Shown piece by piece: positions 28,265-36,628 of a stretch of 64,000 nt of DNA (position 1 is the first letter of the stretch; every line of letters begins with the position of its first letter). The notes under the pieces were generated by a model that saw only the letters and a list, made by a program, of their open reading frames with translations, was not told the DNA's origin and did no database searches. Made by a program: the position numbers and the translations under genes. Source of the DNA: Candidatus Babeliales bacterium (GTDB lineage: Bacteria; Babelota; Babeliae; Babelales; Vermiphilaceae); NCBI GenBank assembly GCA_963743635.1, contig CAVUQO010000003.1, positions 64,001 through 128,000 of the forward strand. Reading direction: 5' to 3'.

Positions 28265-29086
28265 ATGAACATCACCAAGCAAAAATTATTATCATTCCGA
28301 GATTTTATCTGGGCCTTCTATGAAAAAGAAGGAAGAAGATTTGAGTGGCGCAATGTAGATAATCCATACTACGTTCTAGTATCGGAAATCATGCTCCAAC
28401 AAACCCAGACCTATCGGGTTGAGCCCAAATATCAGGCATTTATAGCAGAGTTTCCTAATTTTGAAGCACTTGCGCAGGCATCATTGCGCGATGTGCTCGG
28501 CATGTGGCAGGGGTTGGGGTATAATCGACGTGGAAAATTTCTACATCAAACCGCTCAACGCGTGGTGCAAGAGTATGCGGGAAATCTACCCGATGACCCT
28601 GAACTGCTTGTCACTTTCCCCGGCATTGGAAAAAACACCGCCGGATCTGTTACCGCATTTGCATTCAATAAGCCGACCGTTTTTATTGAGACCAATATTC
28701 GCACGGTTTTTATTCATTCATTTTTTAAAAATCAAGAATCGGTCCACGATAATCTCATCTTACCGCTTGTAGAGCAAACGGTTGATCAGGATAATCCGCG
28801 CGAATGGTATTACGCGCTCATGGATTATGGCGTGCATCTTAAAAAATCGATGCCCAACCCAAGCCGCCGCAGCAAGCATCACGTTATACAATCTAAATTT
28901 GAAGGCTCAGATCGACAAATTCGCGGCGCAATCATTCGTGCGCTCGTCGAGCGTCCCTCGCTCTCTGAATCAGAATTGAGCATTATCTGCAAGAATGATG
29001 CACGGGTATCCAACATCATCCAGGAACTGGAGCAAGAGCAATTGATCGAACGTAAAAATGATATGTTTTGCATTCGCAATGCATGA
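28265..29086 (+). CDS. mutY: A/G-specific adenine glycosylase, short MutY-like form without Fe-S cysteines
   Basis: VSEIMLQQTQ, WQGLGYNRR, HhH FPGIGKNTA, ALMDYG. Confidence 0.85.
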   Translation: MNITKQKLLSFRDFIWAFYEKEGRRFEWRNVDNPYYVLVSEIMLQQTQTYRVEPKYQAFIAEFPNFEALAQASLRDVLGMWQGLGYNRRGKFLHQTAQRVVQEYAGNLPDDPELLVTFPGIGKNTAGSVTAFAFNKPTVFIETNIRTVFIHSFFKNQESVHDNLILPLVEQTVDQDNPREWYYALMDYGVHLKKSMPNPSRRSKHHVIQSKFEGSDRQIRGAIIRALVERPSLSESELSIICKNDARVSNIIQELEQEQLIERKNDMFCIRNA

Positions 29087-29151
29087 AAAAATGCGCCGAT
29101 TTTACTCAGCGCATTTTCATTTTCTTAGATATAAAACAAGAGCTTCTTGTT

Positions 29152-30018
29152 TTACACGCCCCGATAAAGGGTCATTCTATAATTGTGATTCAGTTGGTCT
29201 AACAATGTTTTGTTTTTGGTGTTGCGGTATTGAACGCATGCTTGGTATAAAAGGTAAGTAGACATTTGGCTAGCGGTTGAGGGATCAAGATGTGAGAATC
29301 TTTGTGCTATTAATGTTGCTATATTTGCGCGTGTACATTGCAATTGGGCGCTTTTTAATCGTGCCAATTGCGCATCTAGCCGCGCATCGGATATTGGCCC
29401 TGAAGAAGAAAAGACTATATTTTTTTTAGCGTATTTTCTGTAGGCATCGATAAATTCAGATCTAATTTCATCAGGTGTACTACTATCACGGTGAGAGGCT
29501 GCAACAACAGTTTGTACCAAAAGAACATCCACAGCTCTCCCTTTTAGGTCGGACACTTCTTCTATACGATTAGGCCAATTCCCCTTTGCTCGTTCTTGTA
29601 TATAAAAATCCCGCGTTTCGATTTTTTTACGGTCTTTATCATCTATGTCAAAGTGTCCAGATATTCCTTCGCAAGGATCACTGCAATGATATATCATAGG
29701 CATTGTATATACCGTTTTACCGATTTTATAAACCCTTAATTTGCCGAAATCATCCGTATAATTTACATCCGCCAAGCTACCTACAATCTGTTGCATATCG
29801 CCTTCAAATGCTGCTTGTACTTGTTGAGTTAAATCGGCTTTATTTTGCGCGATTTGGGCGGCTAGCTGGGCTGCATGTGTCTCAAAAGGCGACGACTCGG
29901 CATGGGGCGATCGCACGACGGAACAATCTTCCTCGTCAGTTCTAAATGCACTCATGGCCTGCGTGTTGACTGCACCAGCTAAGAGATATGCTATCGCAAA
30001 GTATTTGATAGATTTCAT
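29152..30018 (-). CDS. Secreted hypothetical protein
   Basis: Signal peptide ...AVNTQA|MS; SD AAGGA. Confidence 0.7.
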   Translation of the reverse strand: MKSIKYFAIAYLLAGAVNTQAMSAFRTDEEDCSVVRSPHAESSPFETHAAQLAAQIAQNKADLTQQVQAAFEGDMQQIVGSLADVNYTDDFGKLRVYKIGKTVYTMPMIYHCSDPCEGISGHFDIDDKDRKKIETRDFYIQERAKGNWPNRIEEVSDLKGRAVDVLLVQTVVAASHRDSSTPDEIRSEFIDAYRKYAKKNIVFSSSGPISDARLDAQLARLKSAQLQCTRANIATLIAQRFSHLDPSTASQMSTYLLYQACVQYRNTKNKTLLDQLNHNYRMTLYRGV

Positions 30019-30235
30019 CTGAAATCCTTTCGTAATAATTGGTTATATGTACTTACTGTGTTATGCATACACGGTTATCTATTATACCAAAGCGCATAAA
30101 AAACTATAGTTAAAAGTAAGTTTTATACAAATGATCACTGTAAGCAAAATGCAAAGCGATCGTTTTGTTTTGTTATTTCAAGCGGGTGGTATAATTTGAT
30201 TCATTTGAATACGTATATTATTAGAAGGACATTCA

Positions 30236-31058
30236 ATGAATATAATACGGCCGGCTATCTTTTGCGTGATAATGAGTATCTCTTTTTTCTGCGCACGCCA
30301 TTTCTTTAAAAGTAGCATCTTCTCTGACTTTAGTGAGTGCTGCCATTTCGGCTTCTACATCATATGCCGCTATTCAAAAATGTGGCGTCTACATTAGTCC
30401 TGAGATGACGGAAACGATGCACGTAGCTCTTGCCGCGGGATCGACGAGTGCTAACGCTGCAGGAACTTTTTGGTGGTTATATAAAAAGACGCCGCAAGGG
30501 CGTATGCGTGATGCAGGCAAAGAGCTTGATCGCATAAGCTCAGTTCTCTCATTAGATTCGATCAAAAAGGCTGATATGCCAGTAGCTGATTTTGAAGCTG
30601 AGGTATTGAAGCGCGCAGAGCGCGCAAATGCGCGAGATCCATTTCCTGTAGTGAAAACAGCGAGGGATTTAGAAGAATATGATAAACGTGTGATGAAGGT
30701 AGGAGTGCTCTTGCAAAAAGCCCATGCAGATATTTGGCCCCTCGATGATGTATTATTGGAGCGCCATGCACAGGTAAGTGGGCGAGCGGATGAAGTAGGA
30801 AATATTGTTAAAGATATGTTGGTGAAGATTAAAAGTACGCCAGAATATGCCAAGCATTTGAAATATCATAATGAAAAGCATGCTCAGGATAATCAGGCAG
30901 ACGCGCAGCATCAACAAGCAACTGCCCAAAAACGGATGGTATGGGTGGGTGTAGCGAACGCTGCCGTTAATGCAGTGTCTGCTACCGCGCAGGGGGCTAT
31001 TGCCGTTGCAAAATTGGCTAAATCGGCGATTGATCCATTCAATCCTTTTAAGAGATAA
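30236..31058 (+). CDS. Secreted hypothetical protein; one extra T in a T-run at 30283-30288 separates the signal peptide from the body
   Basis: ATG 30236 has SD GAAGGA. Removing one T gives MNIIRPAIFCVIMSISFSAHA|ISLKV, in frame with ORF 30333-31058. Confidence 0.6.
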
Positions 31059-31135
31059 ATCCCTTTAAACAGGCGTTTTCTCTCCTAAAAATACCCTTTC
31101 TTGCTATTTGTAATTCCTTACGGTAAGATGAAAGT

Positions 31136-31294
31136 ATGAATATTAAAAAAAATACCACTCAAAACTCAGTAGCGGGCATCGATTTCGGTGCTATGGTTAT
31201 TACCTCTAACCCGGTAAATAGCCAGAGTTGCGCTCTTTCTTATGTAAACTTTTCTTACTTTTACTTTATCTGCCGAGGGTCGCAGTATGCCTAA
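31136..31294 (+). CDS. Putative Tyr/Phe-rich attenuator leader peptide (alternative start 31193)
   Basis: 52-aa ORF ending ...SYVNFSYFYFICRGSQYA*, immediately before terminator/antiterminator elements. Confidence 0.65.
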   Translation: MNIKKNTTQNSVAGIDFGAMVITSNPVNSQSCALSYVNFSYFYFICRGSQYA

Positions 31295-31364
31295 GCTATA
31301 AAGTAAAAATTATAGGCAAAAATTGCGAAAACCTCAGTTCTAAAAAACTGGGGTTTTTTGTTTT
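31275..31364 (+). promoter_or_regulatory. Transcription attenuator (antiterminator and terminator)
   Basis: Terminator aaaacctcagtt/aactggggtttt plus T tract. GAGGGTCGCA (31275-31284) can pair with TGCGA..CCTC (31324-31335), which overlaps the terminator 5' arm. Confidence 0.75.
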
Positions 31365-31440
31365 ATATCATCAAGTGTCAGTGTATTATGATCTATGAAT
31401 ATAATCGAAGCTAAAATCACATATTAATAAAGGAATTTAT

Positions 31441-32421
31441 ATGAAGAAACAATTAATAATTATCGGGATGTTGGGTATATGTGCCGTTGGATTCGTGGCG
31501 CTCAAGCGAATGCAAACACCAGCAATTGCAGCTACCTACACCATCGGCATACTCCAAACTGCTTCGCATCCGGCGCTTGATGCAACGCGTGAAGGGTTTA
31601 TGGAGGAGCTTAAAAGTAAAATGGGAGACGACGTTGCGTTTGTGGAGCAAAATGCGCAGGGCTCAATTACGAGCGTGCATACCATAGCGCAACAATTTCA
31701 TGCGAAAAAACAATATGCTGCATTCTTTGCCATTGCGAGTCCTGCAGCCCAGGCGCTGCACGCGATCGAAAAAGAACGGCCAATAATTATCGCCGCAGTC
31801 AGTGATCCTAATGCTATAGGATTGGTGTATCCAAGAAACAATGTGTGCGGTACGAAAGATATGATTGATGTAAGGGCTGGTGTCGAGCTCTTGACGCAGT
31901 TAGTGCCTAAAGCAAAAACAATTGGTCTTTTATATGCATCAGGTGAAACGAATTCAATAGTTTTGATTAAGGATATGCATAAAGAACTTGAGGCCCGTGG
32001 TCTGAAGGCGATTGATTTTAGCATGAGTAGCGAAGCAGATATTCAGGCAATGGTGGAATCAGCGTGTCATAAAGTTGATGCGCTGCTTGCGCCAACTGAT
32101 AATATGATCGGATCGGCGATCGCTATAATTGCTACGATAGCACTGAAACATAACACACCGCTCATTGTGAGTGATAATATGCTTGTTAAAGATGGTGCGC
32201 TTGCCGCTCAAGGCGTTGACTATAAGGCCGGTGGTAAACAGTCTGCGCAGATTGCGTATGAAATTCTTGTTGGTGGGAAAAAACCATATGAGTTGCCCAT
32301 TGAGCAGATACAAGGCGGTCAAATATTTATTAATAAAAAAACTTTAGATACGCTGGGATTATCTATTCCAGAATCGTTAAAAGATCATATTGTTTTGCTT
32401 CATTCGCAAAAAGATGTTTAA
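31441..32421 (+). CDS. ABC transporter substrate-binding protein (COG2984/TrpX-like, aromatic amino acid)
   Basis: ILQTASHPALD, QNAQG, AAVSDP, PTDN and GVDY motifs. Confidence 0.88.
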   Translation: MKKQLIIIGMLGICAVGFVALKRMQTPAIAATYTIGILQTASHPALDATREGFMEELKSKMGDDVAFVEQNAQGSITSVHTIAQQFHAKKQYAAFFAIASPAAQALHAIEKERPIIIAAVSDPNAIGLVYPRNNVCGTKDMIDVRAGVELLTQLVPKAKTIGLLYASGETNSIVLIKDMHKELEARGLKAIDFSMSSEADIQAMVESACHKVDALLAPTDNMIGSAIAIIATIALKHNTPLIVSDNMLVKDGALAAQGVDYKAGGKQSAQIAYEILVGGKKPYELPIEQIQGGQIFINKKTLDTLGLSIPESLKDHIVLLHSQKDV

Positions 32422-32448
32422 TTTAATTTTAATGTAGTCGAATAGAAA

Positions 32449-32508
32449 GTCCGGCGTAGCAAAATACTTCGTGGAGTAGAAACTTCGAAGTAAATAGCGA
32501 AGCCTGGA
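32449..32508. repeat. GTAG/GAAG-type REP-like unit inside the ABC operon
   Basis: gtccggcgtagc...gcgaagcctgga; related to the 5767, 11305 and 48434 copies. Confidence 0.75.
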
Positions 32509-32528
32509 TAGTGTAATAAGGAAAAACA

Positions 32529-33374
32529 ATGACTGAATTGGTGCACATAGTTCAAGGCATTATCGAGCGGGGTCTCATTTTTGGCATTGTTGTTGCCGCC
32601 GTATATTTGGCTTCACGCCTCATTCATTTTGATAACTTGGCAGTCGAGGGAGCATTTGGATTGGGCGGTGCGCTTACTGCGCTTTTGATTGGTTTGAATG
32701 TAAATCCTTGGATTGCGCTTGGTGGCGCAGCATTAGCGGGAGGCTTATCGGGAGTTGCGACGGGGTTGCTTAACACGAAATTAAAATTGAACAATCTCAT
32801 CAGTGGTATTGTGGTCACCACGGGCTTGTTTTCAATTACGTTGAAAACCGCAGGATCCAATATGACGCTCGGCGACAAAGCGACAATCTTTAATTCAATG
32901 CCTTGGTTTTTTGCTCCGTATCAATCTTTAGTAATGTTAAGTTTTTTATGCATAGCACTGTTTGCTTTTATTGATTGGTTTTTGAAAACGGAAGTTGGCT
33001 TTTTGCTTCGCGCGGTTGGCGATACGCCGCAAATGGTCACTAACGTTGGCAAGAGTGCCGATCTTTATGTGGTGATGGGGCTTACTCTCTCAAATATGTT
33101 TGCCGCGATCAGTGGTGCATTATTCGTGCAATACACCGGCTATTTCTCTATTTGGGCGGGTGTTGGTGTGCTTATCATCGGGTTGGCGGGAATGATTCTG
33201 GCACAAACCTTCAGCCCTTATTTTGGCATATCCCTTCTTTTTGGCTCTATTGCATACCAATCGATTATTGCGCTTACGTTTGAGCTGCAACTCAATCAAG
33301 ATTGGAATAAGTTAATTACCGCCGTGCTCATTGTGTTGTTGATTGTAATCAAGCAATGGTTAGATAAGAAATAA
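32529..33374 (+). CDS. ABC transporter permease (COG4120-like)
   Basis: DNLAVEGAFGLGG, GFLLRAVGD; hydrophobic profile. Confidence 0.88.
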   Translation: MTELVHIVQGIIERGLIFGIVVAAVYLASRLIHFDNLAVEGAFGLGGALTALLIGLNVNPWIALGGAALAGGLSGVATGLLNTKLKLNNLISGIVVTTGLFSITLKTAGSNMTLGDKATIFNSMPWFFAPYQSLVMLSFLCIALFAFIDWFLKTEVGFLLRAVGDTPQMVTNVGKSADLYVVMGLTLSNMFAAISGALFVQYTGYFSIWAGVGVLIIGLAGMILAQTFSPYFGISLLFGSIAYQSIIALTFELQLNQDWNKLITAVLIVLLIVIKQWLDKK

Positions 33375-33386
33375 GGAATTATACAT

Positions 33387-34136
33387 ATGTTAAAGTTAAA
33401 GAATATTAATGTATGGTTCGATCATAACCATATCTTGCGCGATCTTTCATGCGATGTAGAGGCGGGGGATTTTATTGTTATTGTTGGTGCGAATGGCCAG
33501 GGGAAAAGTACGCTCTTTGATACCATTGCAGGAAAAATAATTCCAAAAAGCGGTACAATCACCCTCGATGGTATAAATGTTACTGCTATGGGAGAACAGG
33601 AACGCGCTGGAATGATTACGCGTATTTTTCAGAACACACAGCTCAATTCTGTTGGATCGCTCACGGTGCAACAAAATCTTGCCATGGCTCATTATAGTCG
33701 ACGCAATGCACGTCTTATTGATGGTATGGCTGCAATGCCTCGCGAGCATGCGGAGAAATTAATCCGTAACTTGGGCATGGATGTGTCTATTTTGGATAAA
33801 ACCATGAATGCATTATCGGGCGGTCAACGCCAACTCATTGCGTTTGTAATGTCCACGCAATTGATTCCTAGAATATTATTACTCGATGAACCGACCGCTG
33901 CACTTGATCCTCAGAGTTCTACCAAGTTGCTGCAATACGCTGCGCATTTTATTAAAGAGCACAGGGTAACCACGCTTTTGATCACTCACGATCCACATAT
34001 TGCACTGAGTATCGGAAATAAAGTGTGGGTTTTAGAAGATGGTAAAATATCTAAGGAGTTTGGCCCTGAAGAAAAGAAGAGTCTCAATCCAGATAAGCTG
34101 ATTGGCCAAATCGATTATGCGAGTCTTGAGGGGTAA
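33387..34136 (+). CDS. ABC transporter ATP-binding protein (COG1101-like)
   Basis: GANGQGKST, LSGGQRQ, LLLDEPTAALDP, ITHD. Confidence 0.93.
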   Translation: MLKLKNINVWFDHNHILRDLSCDVEAGDFIVIVGANGQGKSTLFDTIAGKIIPKSGTITLDGINVTAMGEQERAGMITRIFQNTQLNSVGSLTVQQNLAMAHYSRRNARLIDGMAAMPREHAEKLIRNLGMDVSILDKTMNALSGGQRQLIAFVMSTQLIPRILLLDEPTAALDPQSSTKLLQYAAHFIKEHRVTTLLITHDPHIALSIGNKVWVLEDGKISKEFGPEEKKSLNPDKLIGQIDYASLEG

Positions 34137-34161: not shown

Positions 34162-35151
34162 TTAAAATAGATAAGTTATATAATCTTTTGTTTTTCCAAT
34201 TTTTTCTGCATATGGAAAAACACCCTCAATAACCATCCTCTTATCCGCTTGAGCCTTAGAACGAAGGTGAAAGTGATAAGTGTTTCGAGAATATCCCCTT
34301 ATATGATATTTCGTCATTGCAGCATCAACAGCCGTCTCTGTGTCTGTTGTATTATCCAGAAAGGTATAACCGCAGGATAATGCTTCATGATATTGTTTCT
34401 CAGCTGGAAGATCGGGCGAAATTCTAGAAAATAAGGCTTCTAGCGCTGGTTTCTTAGATGCCACATATAAAGACACGGCTTTCCTTGTAATGAGTAGTAT
34501 GCAATTATGTAACAGATTATTCAGCTGTTCCACAGTACGATTACTGTTTGCCTCATACTGCGAGTCCCGTTTAAGATCATTAAGTGTTTTTTGATAAGCT
34601 GTGATTATCGAATCCGATTGTTTCCCAGTGATCCGATTGGTGATGTTCAGTACATTTATTTCATAATCTTTTAGAGCAAGATCTAGCTTTGCAAAATTTT
34701 CTTGCGCTTTTGCAGCGTCGGTAGGTTCTATGCTATAAAAGTTCCATATCTCTAAAATATCTTTTACACATGAATCGATAATTTGTTCCACCTCAGGCCG
34801 TGTGGTCTCAGCAAAAGAAATAAGCTCTTGGAGCGCCTGTTCTCTTGTTATTACACTTTGTTGTTGCGAATCAGAGGTTGATGGCAAGCTTTCGGTTACT
34901 TGCTCTTTTTCATAAGTACGCTCTTCTATTGCAGAATTAAATTGCAGAGCTTTTTTATCTCCCTGTCGTGGAGCTTTTTTAAGAATTGATTTTTTAGTAG
35001 GAGTTGATGGAGAAGAGGTCGAGGGGGATTCGGTGTGTGAGGAGCTACTGCTTTCTGAATTACCCTTAATAGAAGGGCTTGCTTCTTCCATAGCGTGGAT
35101 CATGGGAGTTAAGTAGATGATGGTTGCAAGTATATAATAAATGTTGTGCAT
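34162..35151 (-). CDS. Secreted hypothetical protein with Ser-rich linker
   Basis: Signal peptide ...PMIHA|MEE; SD AAGGAG. Confidence 0.7.
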   Translation of the reverse strand: MHNIYYILATIIYLTPMIHAMEEASPSIKGNSESSSSSHTESPSTSSPSTPTKKSILKKAPRQGDKKALQFNSAIEERTYEKEQVTESLPSTSDSQQQSVITREQALQELISFAETTRPEVEQIIDSCVKDILEIWNFYSIEPTDAAKAQENFAKLDLALKDYEINVLNITNRITGKQSDSIITAYQKTLNDLKRDSQYEANSNRTVEQLNNLLHNCILLITRKAVSLYVASKKPALEALFSRISPDLPAEKQYHEALSCGYTFLDNTTDTETAVDAAMTKYHIRGYSRNTYHFHLRSKAQADKRMVIEGVFPYAEKIGKTKDYITYLF

Positions 35152-35237
35152 AGAGATTACTCCTTAAAAAAATACGTATTATATTCAGTATTTTACGTAT
35201 CATATTGGAATAGTAGTCGGCAATGAAAGAAAATTCA

Positions 35238-36628
35238 TTACGCTCCTTTATAAGTTTTGAGTGCAATTTTACGTTCTTTTTCATGGTCAACAATTGGCCT
35301 TGGGTAGTCTTTGTATTTAGGGCTGTATCTTTGAACCAAGTATGAATGATCTTAGGCTCAATTTTGGAGAGTTCAGGGATCCATCTTTTTATATAGATAC
35401 ACTCAGGGTCGAATTTCTTTTGCTGAGTCCATGGATTAAAAATACGAAAGTAGGGCTGTGCATCGCAGCCAGTAGAAGCGGCCCATTGCCAATTACCATT
35501 GTTAACCGCGGGATCGTAATCAACGAGTTGTTGCGCGAAATACTTCTCGCCCCATTGCCAGTTGATATGAAGATCTTTAGTTAAGAAAGATGCGACAATC
35601 ATGCGCGCCCGATTATGCATAAATCCTGTTTCATTGAGTTGCCGCATGCCCGCATCAACGATTGGAAAGCCGGTCTTACCTTCGCACCATTTTTGAAAGT
35701 TTGCTTTGCTCGTACTCCAATGGAGAGCGTTATATTTTTTATGATAAGCATGTCCGTAGACGTAGGGCGAGTGGAACGCAACGTGATAATAGAAATCGCG
35801 CCAGTAAAGTTGGCGTAAAAGTGGATGATTGACACCAAGATGTTCTTTGATGGATGCAGCCACTTGTCGAACTGAAACGCATCCGAATTTAAGATAAGCA
35901 GATAGATGAGTAGTTAATGAAAGAGCGGGAATATCTCGCTCTTTTTCATAATGTTTAAATTTCTCAAGAGAGCGTAAAATTTTTTGCCCATTATCAGTTC
36001 CGCCATGAACGAAAATAGCGGGATTTTCTTTTGGTACTATTTTTTTAAATAATACTTTTGATAATTCGGCGCCTTTGATCGATGTGGCGTAAAAATTATG
36101 AAGACGTAAAGAAAGAGGATTTTTTATAGGAAGATGTTTAAAGCAGTATTTATAAAAGGGAGTGAAGACTGAATACGGAGTTCCGCTGCCGGTTTTAACG
36201 TCATCTGGTTCATTGAGTAAAACATCTGAATGCTGCATGAAGGGGAGATTTGCCTGATCGCAGACTTTCTGAATTGCTGTATCGCGCATGATGCTAAATG
36301 GCGTATAGTCCCGATTGCAAAAAACTGCATCAATTTTTTCTTGTTTAATCAATTTTTTAACAATGTCGTCAGGCTTGCCATAAAAAACATAAAGTTGAGC
36401 TTTTTTTGCTGCTAATTGGCCTGAAAGATCTTTAAGGGATTCAACCATAAACTGGATTGCATTTGAGCTGCGATAATCATTGCTTTTTCCGATTTGACGT
36501 GTATCGAATATAAAACACGGAATCACCGTTTCGCTTTCAGCAAGCGCCGCATATAATCCGGTATTATCCGTTAAACGGAGATCGCGCCTGAATATAAAGA
36601 GAGCTTTTCGATATTGTTTTTGTGCCAT
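35238..36628 (-). CDS. phrB: Class I CPD DNA photolyase; single frameshift near 35320
   Basis: RRDLRLTDN, LSAYLKFG, GKTGFPIVDAGMRQL, MHNRARMIVASFL, RIFNP. The canonical end DYPRPIVDHEKERKIALKTYKGA* is in another frame and ends at 35238. Confidence 0.92.

Follow-up and report, generated by a model that had tools for sequence, protein, structure and literature searches.

The window analyzed here is a 64,000-nucleotide (nt) stretch of contig CAVUQO010000003.1 (positions 64,001 to 128,000; assembly GCA_963743635.1) from a Candidatus Babeliales bacterium, in which the region at 31136–31364 precedes the three genes of an ATP-binding cassette (ABC) importer. Comparison of this region with those of its relatives indicates that it is very likely a real ribosome-mediated leader-peptide transcription attenuator of the importer operon. 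The attenuator appears to sense mainly tyrosine and probably also phenylalanine. Supporting this reading are the sequence elements at the locus, the geometry of these elements, their conservation and covariation in relatives, and the identity of the leader codons, which matches the transporter clade. The source is a Dependentiae/Babeliales metagenome-assembled genome of 1.45 Mb in three contigs that is 85% complete.

An aromatic leader frame upstream of an ABC importer operon

On the operon strand, a short and presumably translated frame lies in the 382-nt spacer between a 241-codon gene (30333–31058) and the importer operon, with its stop codon 146 nt upstream of the binding-protein start. 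The frame and the operon consist of the following features.

31136–31294, forward strand: leader peptide frame of 52 codons with an ATG start and a TAA stop at 31292–31294; no Pfam family
31241–31267, forward strand: regulatory codon block with Tyr codons at 31241, 31256, and 31262 and Phe codons at 31250, 31259, and 31265
31441–32421, forward strand: substrate-binding protein gene, 326 amino acids (aa), PF04392 at 7.4e-60
32529–33374, forward strand: permease gene, 281 aa, PF02653 at 6.6e-21
33387–34136, forward strand: ATP-binding protein gene, 249 aa, PF00005 at 2.9e-27

The binding-protein gene and the adjacent permease and ATPase genes run in one direction, as in PF04392/COG2984-type importers. 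The original prediction for this region, made from the DNA sequence of the window, started from a leader frame containing the run Y-V-N-F-S-Y-F-Y-F, and we located this run at leader codons 36 to 44 (31241–31267), where six Tyr/Phe codons fall within nine. An additional Tyr codon is found downstream of the block at 31286, and the last 22 leader codons contain 4 Tyr and 3 Phe codons in total.

We considered how often such a frame would arise in the background of this 1.45-Mb genome. At least seven Tyr, Phe, or Trp residues were present among the last 22 residues in 16 of 1117 (1.4%) small ATG frames preceding terminator-like sites, and a terminator scan found 2 sites compared to 1.5 in shuffled sequences. 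Because background frames can be equally aromatic and the terminator scan is near the shuffle level, the single locus is weak evidence, and the significance of the leader therefore rests on its conservation in relatives. A genome-wide search for other leaders, defined by an abutting promoter, a small intergenic frame, and a terminator, gave six candidates, only one of which, the frame at 31136–31294, was leader-like. A protein database search with the window leader returned a single relative among 5.8 billion predicted proteins (88% identity), in which the aromatic block is kept. An exact-pattern scan of genome contigs gave 18 loci, including five Babeliales loci of the survey described below; we took the remainder to be chance matches in large genomes.

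A predicted antiterminator overlaps both the end of the leader and the terminator

Two mutually exclusive RNA structures were found around and downstream of the leader stop codon.

31272–31338, forward strand: antiterminator hairpin of three helices, with the leader stop codon in its 5′ arm
31327–31364, forward strand: intrinsic terminator with a stem at 31327–31358 (13 pairs, 4 of them G-C), a loop of 6, and a T-rich tail to 31364

Located downstream of the leader and ahead of the binding-protein gene, the terminator begins one position upstream of the T-tailed terminator that had been predicted at 31328–31364. In the antiterminator, a base helix pairs GAGG at 31275–31278 with CCTC at 31332–31335, together with 31272–73 and 31337–38, followed by a middle helix (31280–86 with 31322–28) and a top helix (31288–93 with 31313–18). 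The pairing proposed in the original prediction between the strand at 31275–31284 and 31324–31335 of the terminator 5′ arm is part of the minimum-free-energy fold before the terminator 3′ arm is made. Six of the eight core bases of this 5′ arm are occupied by the antiterminator, which thereby excludes the terminator. The 271-nt leader region folded at −69.7 kcal/mol (z score of −4.08; equaled by 0 of 200 shuffles), and the hairpin at 31272–31338 reached −20.7 kcal/mol (z score of −3.72) in RNA stopping before the terminator 3′ arm. Folding of the alternative structures, suggested earlier as a check, therefore recovered the competing hairpin. A covariance search (cmscan) of 29000–33000 against Rfam at E ≤ 1 found no leader family (Phe_leader, Trp_leader, and others) and no T-box, and returned only a sub-threshold opposite-strand small nucleolar RNA (snoRNA) and an unrelated small RNA match.

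The geometry of the region was analyzed by masked folding, with an assumed ribosome footprint of −15 to +10 nt around the first A-site base and the nascent RNA end at 31345. With the ribosome at the Tyr codon at 31286 or at the stop codon, the probability of the base helix was 0, as expected if a ribosome at 31292–31294 masks the antiterminator strand. With the ribosome at each of the first five codons of the block, the probability was 0.97 to 0.99, and at the sixth it was 0.43. Thus, under this footprint, the proposal that stalling at the Tyr/Phe codons frees the antiterminator strand holds for five of the six block codons and only partly for the last.

These elements suggest the following sequence of events. 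A transcript beginning at the ATG at 31136, or right beside it, would have its 52-codon leader translated by a ribosome. With ample charged tRNA-Tyr (and probably tRNA-Phe), this ribosome would reach the stop at 31292 and cover about 31277–31302. The covered 5′ strand of the antiterminator could then not pair, so the terminator at 31327–31358 with its T tail would form and transcription would stop short of the importer genes. If charged tRNA-Tyr or tRNA-Phe runs low, the ribosome would instead stall in the block at 31241–31265, leaving the strand from 31275 onward free to pair with 31313–31338 once the latter is made. The C-rich core of the terminator 5′ arm would then be held in the antiterminator, and polymerase would continue into the binding-protein, permease, and ATPase genes. 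For the present locus, we infer stalling and read-through from the arrangement of these elements.

Tyrosine-rich leaders are conserved across Babeliales

To place the window leader among relatives, we searched the 261 genomes of the order for the binding-protein gene, which gave 84 matches at E ≤ 1e-40 in 69 genomes. After 12 second copies of tandem or neighboring pairs were dropped, 72 loci were read (the window, 12 loci, and 59 further upstream stretches), some of which end at contig ends. Reading by eye in eight other genera revealed the same order of parts, an ATG frame rich in Tyr/Phe in its last third, then a G-rich stretch, the stop codon, and a T-tailed hairpin rich in C. On the operon strand, 34 of the 72 loci had an ATG frame that precedes a terminator and has at least six Tyr/Phe/Trp among its last 22 residues, compared to 7 of 72 on the opposite strand. 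When at least eight such residues were demanded, the counts were 14 of 72 and 0 of 72, respectively.

Leaders were also chosen by position only, with no composition criterion, as ATG frames of 20 to 95 codons ending 0 to 70 nt before a terminator. A terminator occurred at most 350 nt upstream of the binding-protein gene in 42 of the 72 loci, 34 of which contained a position-chosen frame. In the last 22 residues of these 34 frames, Tyr made up 19.1% compared to a genome-wide background of 3.1% (6.1-fold), Phe 11.4% compared to 5.9% (1.9-fold), and Trp 0.8% compared to 1.6% (0.5-fold). Every one of the 34 frames had at least one Tyr in this tail, and 30 had at least three. Aromatic codons were most frequent in the reading frame of the leader: the 21 codons before the stop contained 229 aromatic codons in frame 0 and 93 and 155 in frames +1 and +2. 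The in-frame cluster of regulating codons is therefore kept, in agreement with the expectation that aromatic codons are conserved in orthologous leaders. With regard to the dual Tyr/Phe sensing originally proposed, the tyrosine part is well supported across relatives, with phenylalanine in a secondary place.

The leader peptides are homologous. A profile hidden Markov model seeded with 21 rule-picked leaders recovered 29 frames at E ≤ 3.1e-4, 8 of which were not seeds; every one of the 29 had the orientation of the operon, while no opposite-strand match was better than an E value of 0.16. Positive loci came from at least 10 family codes, and the leaders were 45 to 58 codons long in most relatives. 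We also observed nucleotide-level conservation among genera in the four codons directly preceding the aromatic block (Cys, Ala or Val, Leu, and Ser; 31226–31243 in the window). These codons have no role in the attenuator model; they might serve as a pause site or in base pairing.

The arrangement of genes downstream of the leader varied among the loci. A class IV aminotransferase gene was situated between the leader/terminator and the binding-protein gene in four loci, with the binding-protein gene immediately after it. PF01063 genes at or near this position were recorded at L037:1457–2398, L038:1368–2375, L051:220–1113 (reverse strand), and L050:216–1109 (reverse strand). Being downstream of the leader and terminator, the aminotransferase would be co-regulated with the importer; no leader was seen upstream of the L050 aminotransferase gene. 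One locus had the gene order permease, ATPase, and binding protein. In one genus (L072:983–2350 and L075:1000–2382), a 455- to 460-aa protein without a Pfam family is encoded between the Tyr/Phe-rich leader and the binding-protein gene. In another genus (L084:793–2241 and L085:757–2229, both reverse strand), the binding-protein gene is preceded by a PF00474 sodium:solute symporter gene in the same orientation, and we recognized no leader at either locus.

Compensatory changes in the proposed antiterminator

The antiterminator was examined in the 41 loci that have both an aromatic frame and a terminator, a set that includes a few likely false frames. Hairpins folded before the terminator had a median z score of −2.4, with 26 of the 41 below −1.64, and 57% of the terminator arm was paired to upstream bases, compared to 31% after shuffling. 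In an arm-swap test on the same loci, cognate arms had a mean energy of −9.47 kcal/mol compared to −8.72 kcal/mol for non-cognate arms, and 42 of 10,000 permutations were as good.

An RNAalifold consensus from 19 leaders aligned with MAFFT alone was uninformative (6 pairs, with misaligned 3′ arms) and was replaced by a covariance-model alignment. The model was built from 18 close leaders and aligned 21 sites in the 72 sources, with no second match in the 64-kb window. In this alignment, 75.5% of the cells were standard pairs, compared to 32 to 52% when the partners were slid. Compensatory changes on both sides occurred in 12 of the 16 antiterminator pairs, and none of 500 shuffles reached the covariation score, although these values favor the structure because the 21-sequence alignment was itself fitted to the covariance model. 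The terminator is in the matching place in relatives. These findings, together with the folding analysis, support an antiterminator that is conserved as paired RNA and competes with a conserved terminator.

The leader may be translated from a leaderless mRNA

A promoter-like sequence was found immediately upstream of the leader frame.

31101–31129, forward strand: putative leader promoter with −35 TTGCTA at 31101–31106, a 17-nt spacer, and −10 TAAGAT at 31124–31129

The −10 element ends 6 nt upstream of the leader ATG. We defined this abutting layout as TTGnnn, 16 to 18 nt, and T[A/T]nnnn ending 5 to 8 nt before an ATG, and found it in 19 of the 41 Tyr leaders (window included), compared to 174 of 3129 (5.6%) other ATG triplets of the same regions and 1 of 72 binding-protein starts. 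In relatives, TG often precedes the −10 element, and a Shine-Dalgarno-like word was present in just 8 of the 41 leaders. The window promoter at 31101–31129 was not picked up by a stricter promoter scan. Because the −10 element abuts the ATG, the transcript would begin at or next to the A of this codon, suggesting that the mRNA is probably leaderless, with translation of the leader beginning at its very 5′ end.

Leader codons and the binding pocket change together

The original prediction linked this transporter family to aromatic amino acids, and the solved relatives of the binding protein bear this out. The best of these relatives are 6HNI (CD0873 of Clostridioides difficile; 8.6e-51), 3LKV (VC_1101; 3e-41), and 3LFT (SP1069; 4.4e-37). 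The crystals hold Tyr in CD0873, Phe in VC_1101, and Trp in SP1069 (PMC6816091). According to the same report, a Tyr residue blocks Trp in CD0873 and VC_1101, Gln occupies this position in SP1069, and a Glu of CD0873 bonds the tyrosine hydroxyl and gives Tyr specificity (PMC6816091). In HMMER alignments, the window protein shares the Trp-blocking Tyr of CD0873 and VC_1101 (Tyr261) and has Asp245 where CD0873 has this Glu. Both residues are kept in 15 of 16 orthologues, and Tyr is found at the 261 position in all 16. The imported substrate is most likely tyrosine, possibly also phenylalanine. We rejected Asp245 as a marker of Tyr specificity since Asp is also found in the clade with Trp leaders described below; being common to both clades, it does not tell Tyr from Phe. 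In Rickettsia, the same set of COGs appears under the heading of an importer for branched-chain amino acids or sugars (PMC5615194).

Consistent with a need for import, we found no match in this genome to the chorismate synthase, prephenate dehydratase, phenylalanine hydroxylase, or class IV aminotransferase (PF01063) families, although with the genome 85% complete the absence of the pathway is likely rather than proven. For the prephenate dehydrogenase family, there was a single weak match covering only the N-terminal part (29.2 bits), which we did not count as a Tyr pathway.

A paralogous clade of PF04392 binding proteins, 25 to 28% identical to the window protein and not found in the window's genome, provided a comparison for the leader codons. 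Leaders of this clade end in two or three Trp codons. At least two Trp among the last 12 leader residues were present on the operon strand in 14 of 48 paralogous loci, compared to 3 of 48 on the opposite strand; 3 of the 48 loci had less than 100 nt of upstream sequence. In all eight aligned paralogues, Glu replaces Tyr at the position of window Tyr261, which in the solved relatives decides whether Trp is accepted or excluded (PMC6816091). Leader codons and binding pocket therefore change together between the clades, a pattern that would be difficult to account for if the codons were not read. Loci with Trp leaders include L021, L023, L027, L103, L109, L115, L118, L122, L123, L129, and L131 to L133. 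Several of these appear to have a simpler layout than the Tyr type, with the stop and Trp codons placed within the stem of the terminator. A promoter abutting the ATG was found in 0 of 14 Trp-type leaders.

Taken further, these observations could describe a new family of importer attenuators in Babeliales whose leader codons name the substrate, Tyr/Phe on one PF04392 clade and Trp on its paralogue. The Tyr type would then be a subclass of its own with a long (45- to 58-codon) leaderless leader, whose conserved N terminus and four pre-block codons do more than count codons. We offer this wider scheme as speculation that is rather unlikely to hold in full. Within it, the conserved parts of the Tyr-type leader might time ribosome loading against polymerase or act through the nascent chain.

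Weighing the attenuator against alternative explanations

Several observations weigh against a Tyr/Phe attenuator at this locus. With the full terminator present, the terminator probability at equilibrium was 1.00 at every ribosome position, so folding under these conditions does not separate the positions. Since the complete terminator wins in all states at equilibrium, the switch must be kinetic; in our folding model, the antiterminator can act only kinetically, as in other attenuators. The window has a short base helix (4 pairs plus 2) by the standards of the family, and the antiterminator probability was 0.97 without any ribosome. Untranslated transcripts should therefore read through, unlike in the trp paradigm. 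The window leader lacks a Shine-Dalgarno sequence, and its −10 element lacks the TG extension common among relatives. In addition, the following site could give basal, unregulated importer expression that escapes the attenuator.

31362–31389: promoter-like site after the terminator and upstream of the binding-protein gene (TTTATA, 16 nt, TATTAT)

Among the relatives, about 30 of the 72 orthologous loci had no leader recognized by the criteria used, several of them reaching contig ends, and the kinship among loci means that the counts overstate the statistics, as kin are not independent. In locus L004, about 150 to 300 nt upstream of the binding-protein gene, a leader-like sequence has its Tyr/Phe codons in a different register from the ATG frame, which could reflect an insertion or deletion, a misassembly, or a leader in decay. 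The covariance-model match of this locus was weak (E value of 0.4). Finally, the Phe-Tyr-Phe leader AroR of Corynebacterium glutamicum responded to Phe and not to Tyr (PMC11802643). The sensed amino acid is not readable from codons alone.

This last point bears on the strongest alternative, in which the switch senses tyrosine only and either the Phe codons are passengers of T-rich sequence or both importer and sensor are Tyr specific. We take this possibility seriously without regarding it as the probable one. The position-chosen leaders favor it in that Tyr is enriched 6.1-fold and occurs in all 34, compared to 1.9-fold for Phe, which is missing from the tail of 5 of the 34; in some leaders, the aromatic codons are nearly all Tyr. 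Among the solved relatives, the nearest one is Tyr specific (PMC6816091). Even so, Phe remains above the background of the same AT-rich genome, and Phe and Tyr codons alternate in the window. The residue aligned with the specificity Glu of CD0873 is an Asp that also occurs in the Trp-leader clade and hence provides no discrimination.

It is very unlikely that the frame encodes a small functional protein or trans-acting peptide, with the hairpins just ending its transcript and the importer transcribed from the site at 31362–31389. The frame is long for a leader in the window and most relatives, its N terminus and the four pre-block codons are conserved, and a promoter-like site does follow the terminator. 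However, the frame is always directly upstream of the operon, or of the aminotransferase gene and operon, regardless of the genes further upstream. Moreover, compensatory changes keep the conserved 3′ codons paired at the RNA level, the aromatic block differs between leaders in order and length but not in composition, and the frame belongs to no Pfam family and has one relative among the 5.8 billion predicted proteins.

Equally improbable is that a nascent peptide or RNA senses the free amino acid rather than tRNA charging, either through TnaC-like arrest at the stop or as a riboswitch. Such a mechanism would fit the strong conservation of the last five codons and stop, and a ribosome arrested at the stop would likewise mask the antiterminator. 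However, base pairing explains the conservation of these last codons, the aromatic codons are in frame, and Rfam gave no match at E ≤ 1 that fits a riboswitch, the opposite-strand snoRNA being spurious. The swap to Trp codons in the paralogous clade is also what codon counting expects.

Least credible of all is a chance origin, with the hairpin as the terminator of the upstream gene at 30333–31058 and the aromatic frame as AT-rich noise: 1.4% of background small frames before terminator-like sites are equally aromatic and the terminator scan was not above shuffles, but the comparative data contradict it, as frame, codon content, promoter, antiterminator, and terminator are conserved in many genera with different upstream genes, and the terminator lies 269 nt past the stop of the upstream gene with a promoter-like site between.

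Neighboring frames in the window

On the reverse strand at 34162–35151, a 329-aa frame without a Pfam family overlaps the 3′ end of a photolyase gene (35066–36628, reverse strand) by 86 nt; this pair may contain a miscalled start or end. The two neighboring frames at 29152–30018 (reverse strand, 288 aa) and 30333–31058 (forward strand, 241 aa) likewise have no Pfam family.

Comparison with known attenuation systems

The proposed mechanism is classical leader-peptide attenuation. It differs from the classical form in having an importer rather than a biosynthetic operon as its target, Tyr as the main codon, a long leader, a probably leaderless start, and a predicted read-through of ribosome-free transcripts. 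In the literature we searched, which omits most subscription journals and so may miss a prior description, no publication joining Dependentiae with leader peptides or attenuation was found among the matches listed, nor any relevant publication on Dependentiae and riboswitches, on COG2984 regulation, or on leader peptides with tyrosine codons. Members of the Dependentiae depend on a host, have reduced genomes, and are difficult to cultivate, and their gene regulation is almost uncharted. A conserved attenuator would imply that they keep track of tRNA charging and tune what they take up from the host accordingly. It would also assign substrates to two widespread, vaguely annotated importers and add tyrosine to the short list of amino acids sensed by leader peptides.

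Leader attenuators of Escherichia coli control biosynthesis or tRNA synthetase genes through leaders of 14 to 16 codons that have a Shine-Dalgarno sequence, and their 1:2 hairpin gives termination in the absence of translation. The window attenuator differs from these in its importer target, its 52 codons, Tyr as the main codon, an mRNA that is probably leaderless, and an antiterminator that forms without a ribosome. It has in common with trpL-trpEDCBA, pheL-pheA, and pheM-pheST a translated frame with regulating codons, a terminator, an antiterminator, and a read-out by ribosome position (PMC11802643).

Two other bacterial systems resemble the leader in part. AroR, upstream of aroF in C. glutamicum, is likewise a mixed Phe/Tyr leader that uses ribosome stalling; it controls a DAHP synthase operon, whereas the window leader precedes an importer, alternates 3 Tyr with 3 Phe codons, and belongs to a family in which Tyr dominates (PMC11802643). 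Mycobacterial leaderless polycysteine short open reading frames also lie at the mRNA 5′ end and have clustered codons for a single amino acid and control over downstream genes, according to a preprint (bioRxiv 10.1101/834739). These Cys-responsive attenuators differ from the window leader in phylum, amino acid, and target genes (bioRxiv 10.1101/834739).

The closest parallel in terms of the regulated genes is the T-box-controlled trpXYZ importer of Streptococcus suis and relatives, which belongs to the same transporter family (PF04392 binding protein, permease, and ATPase) (PMC9382623). There, expression rises with uncharged cognate tRNA through competition between a terminator and an antiterminator (PMC9382623). 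The sensor of trpXYZ is an RNA of about 460 nt that binds tRNA directly, whereas that of the window would be a translated leader (PMC9382623). Because the same transporter family is under T-box RNAs in Firmicutes, two different sensors would have converged on one regulatory logic for this importer.

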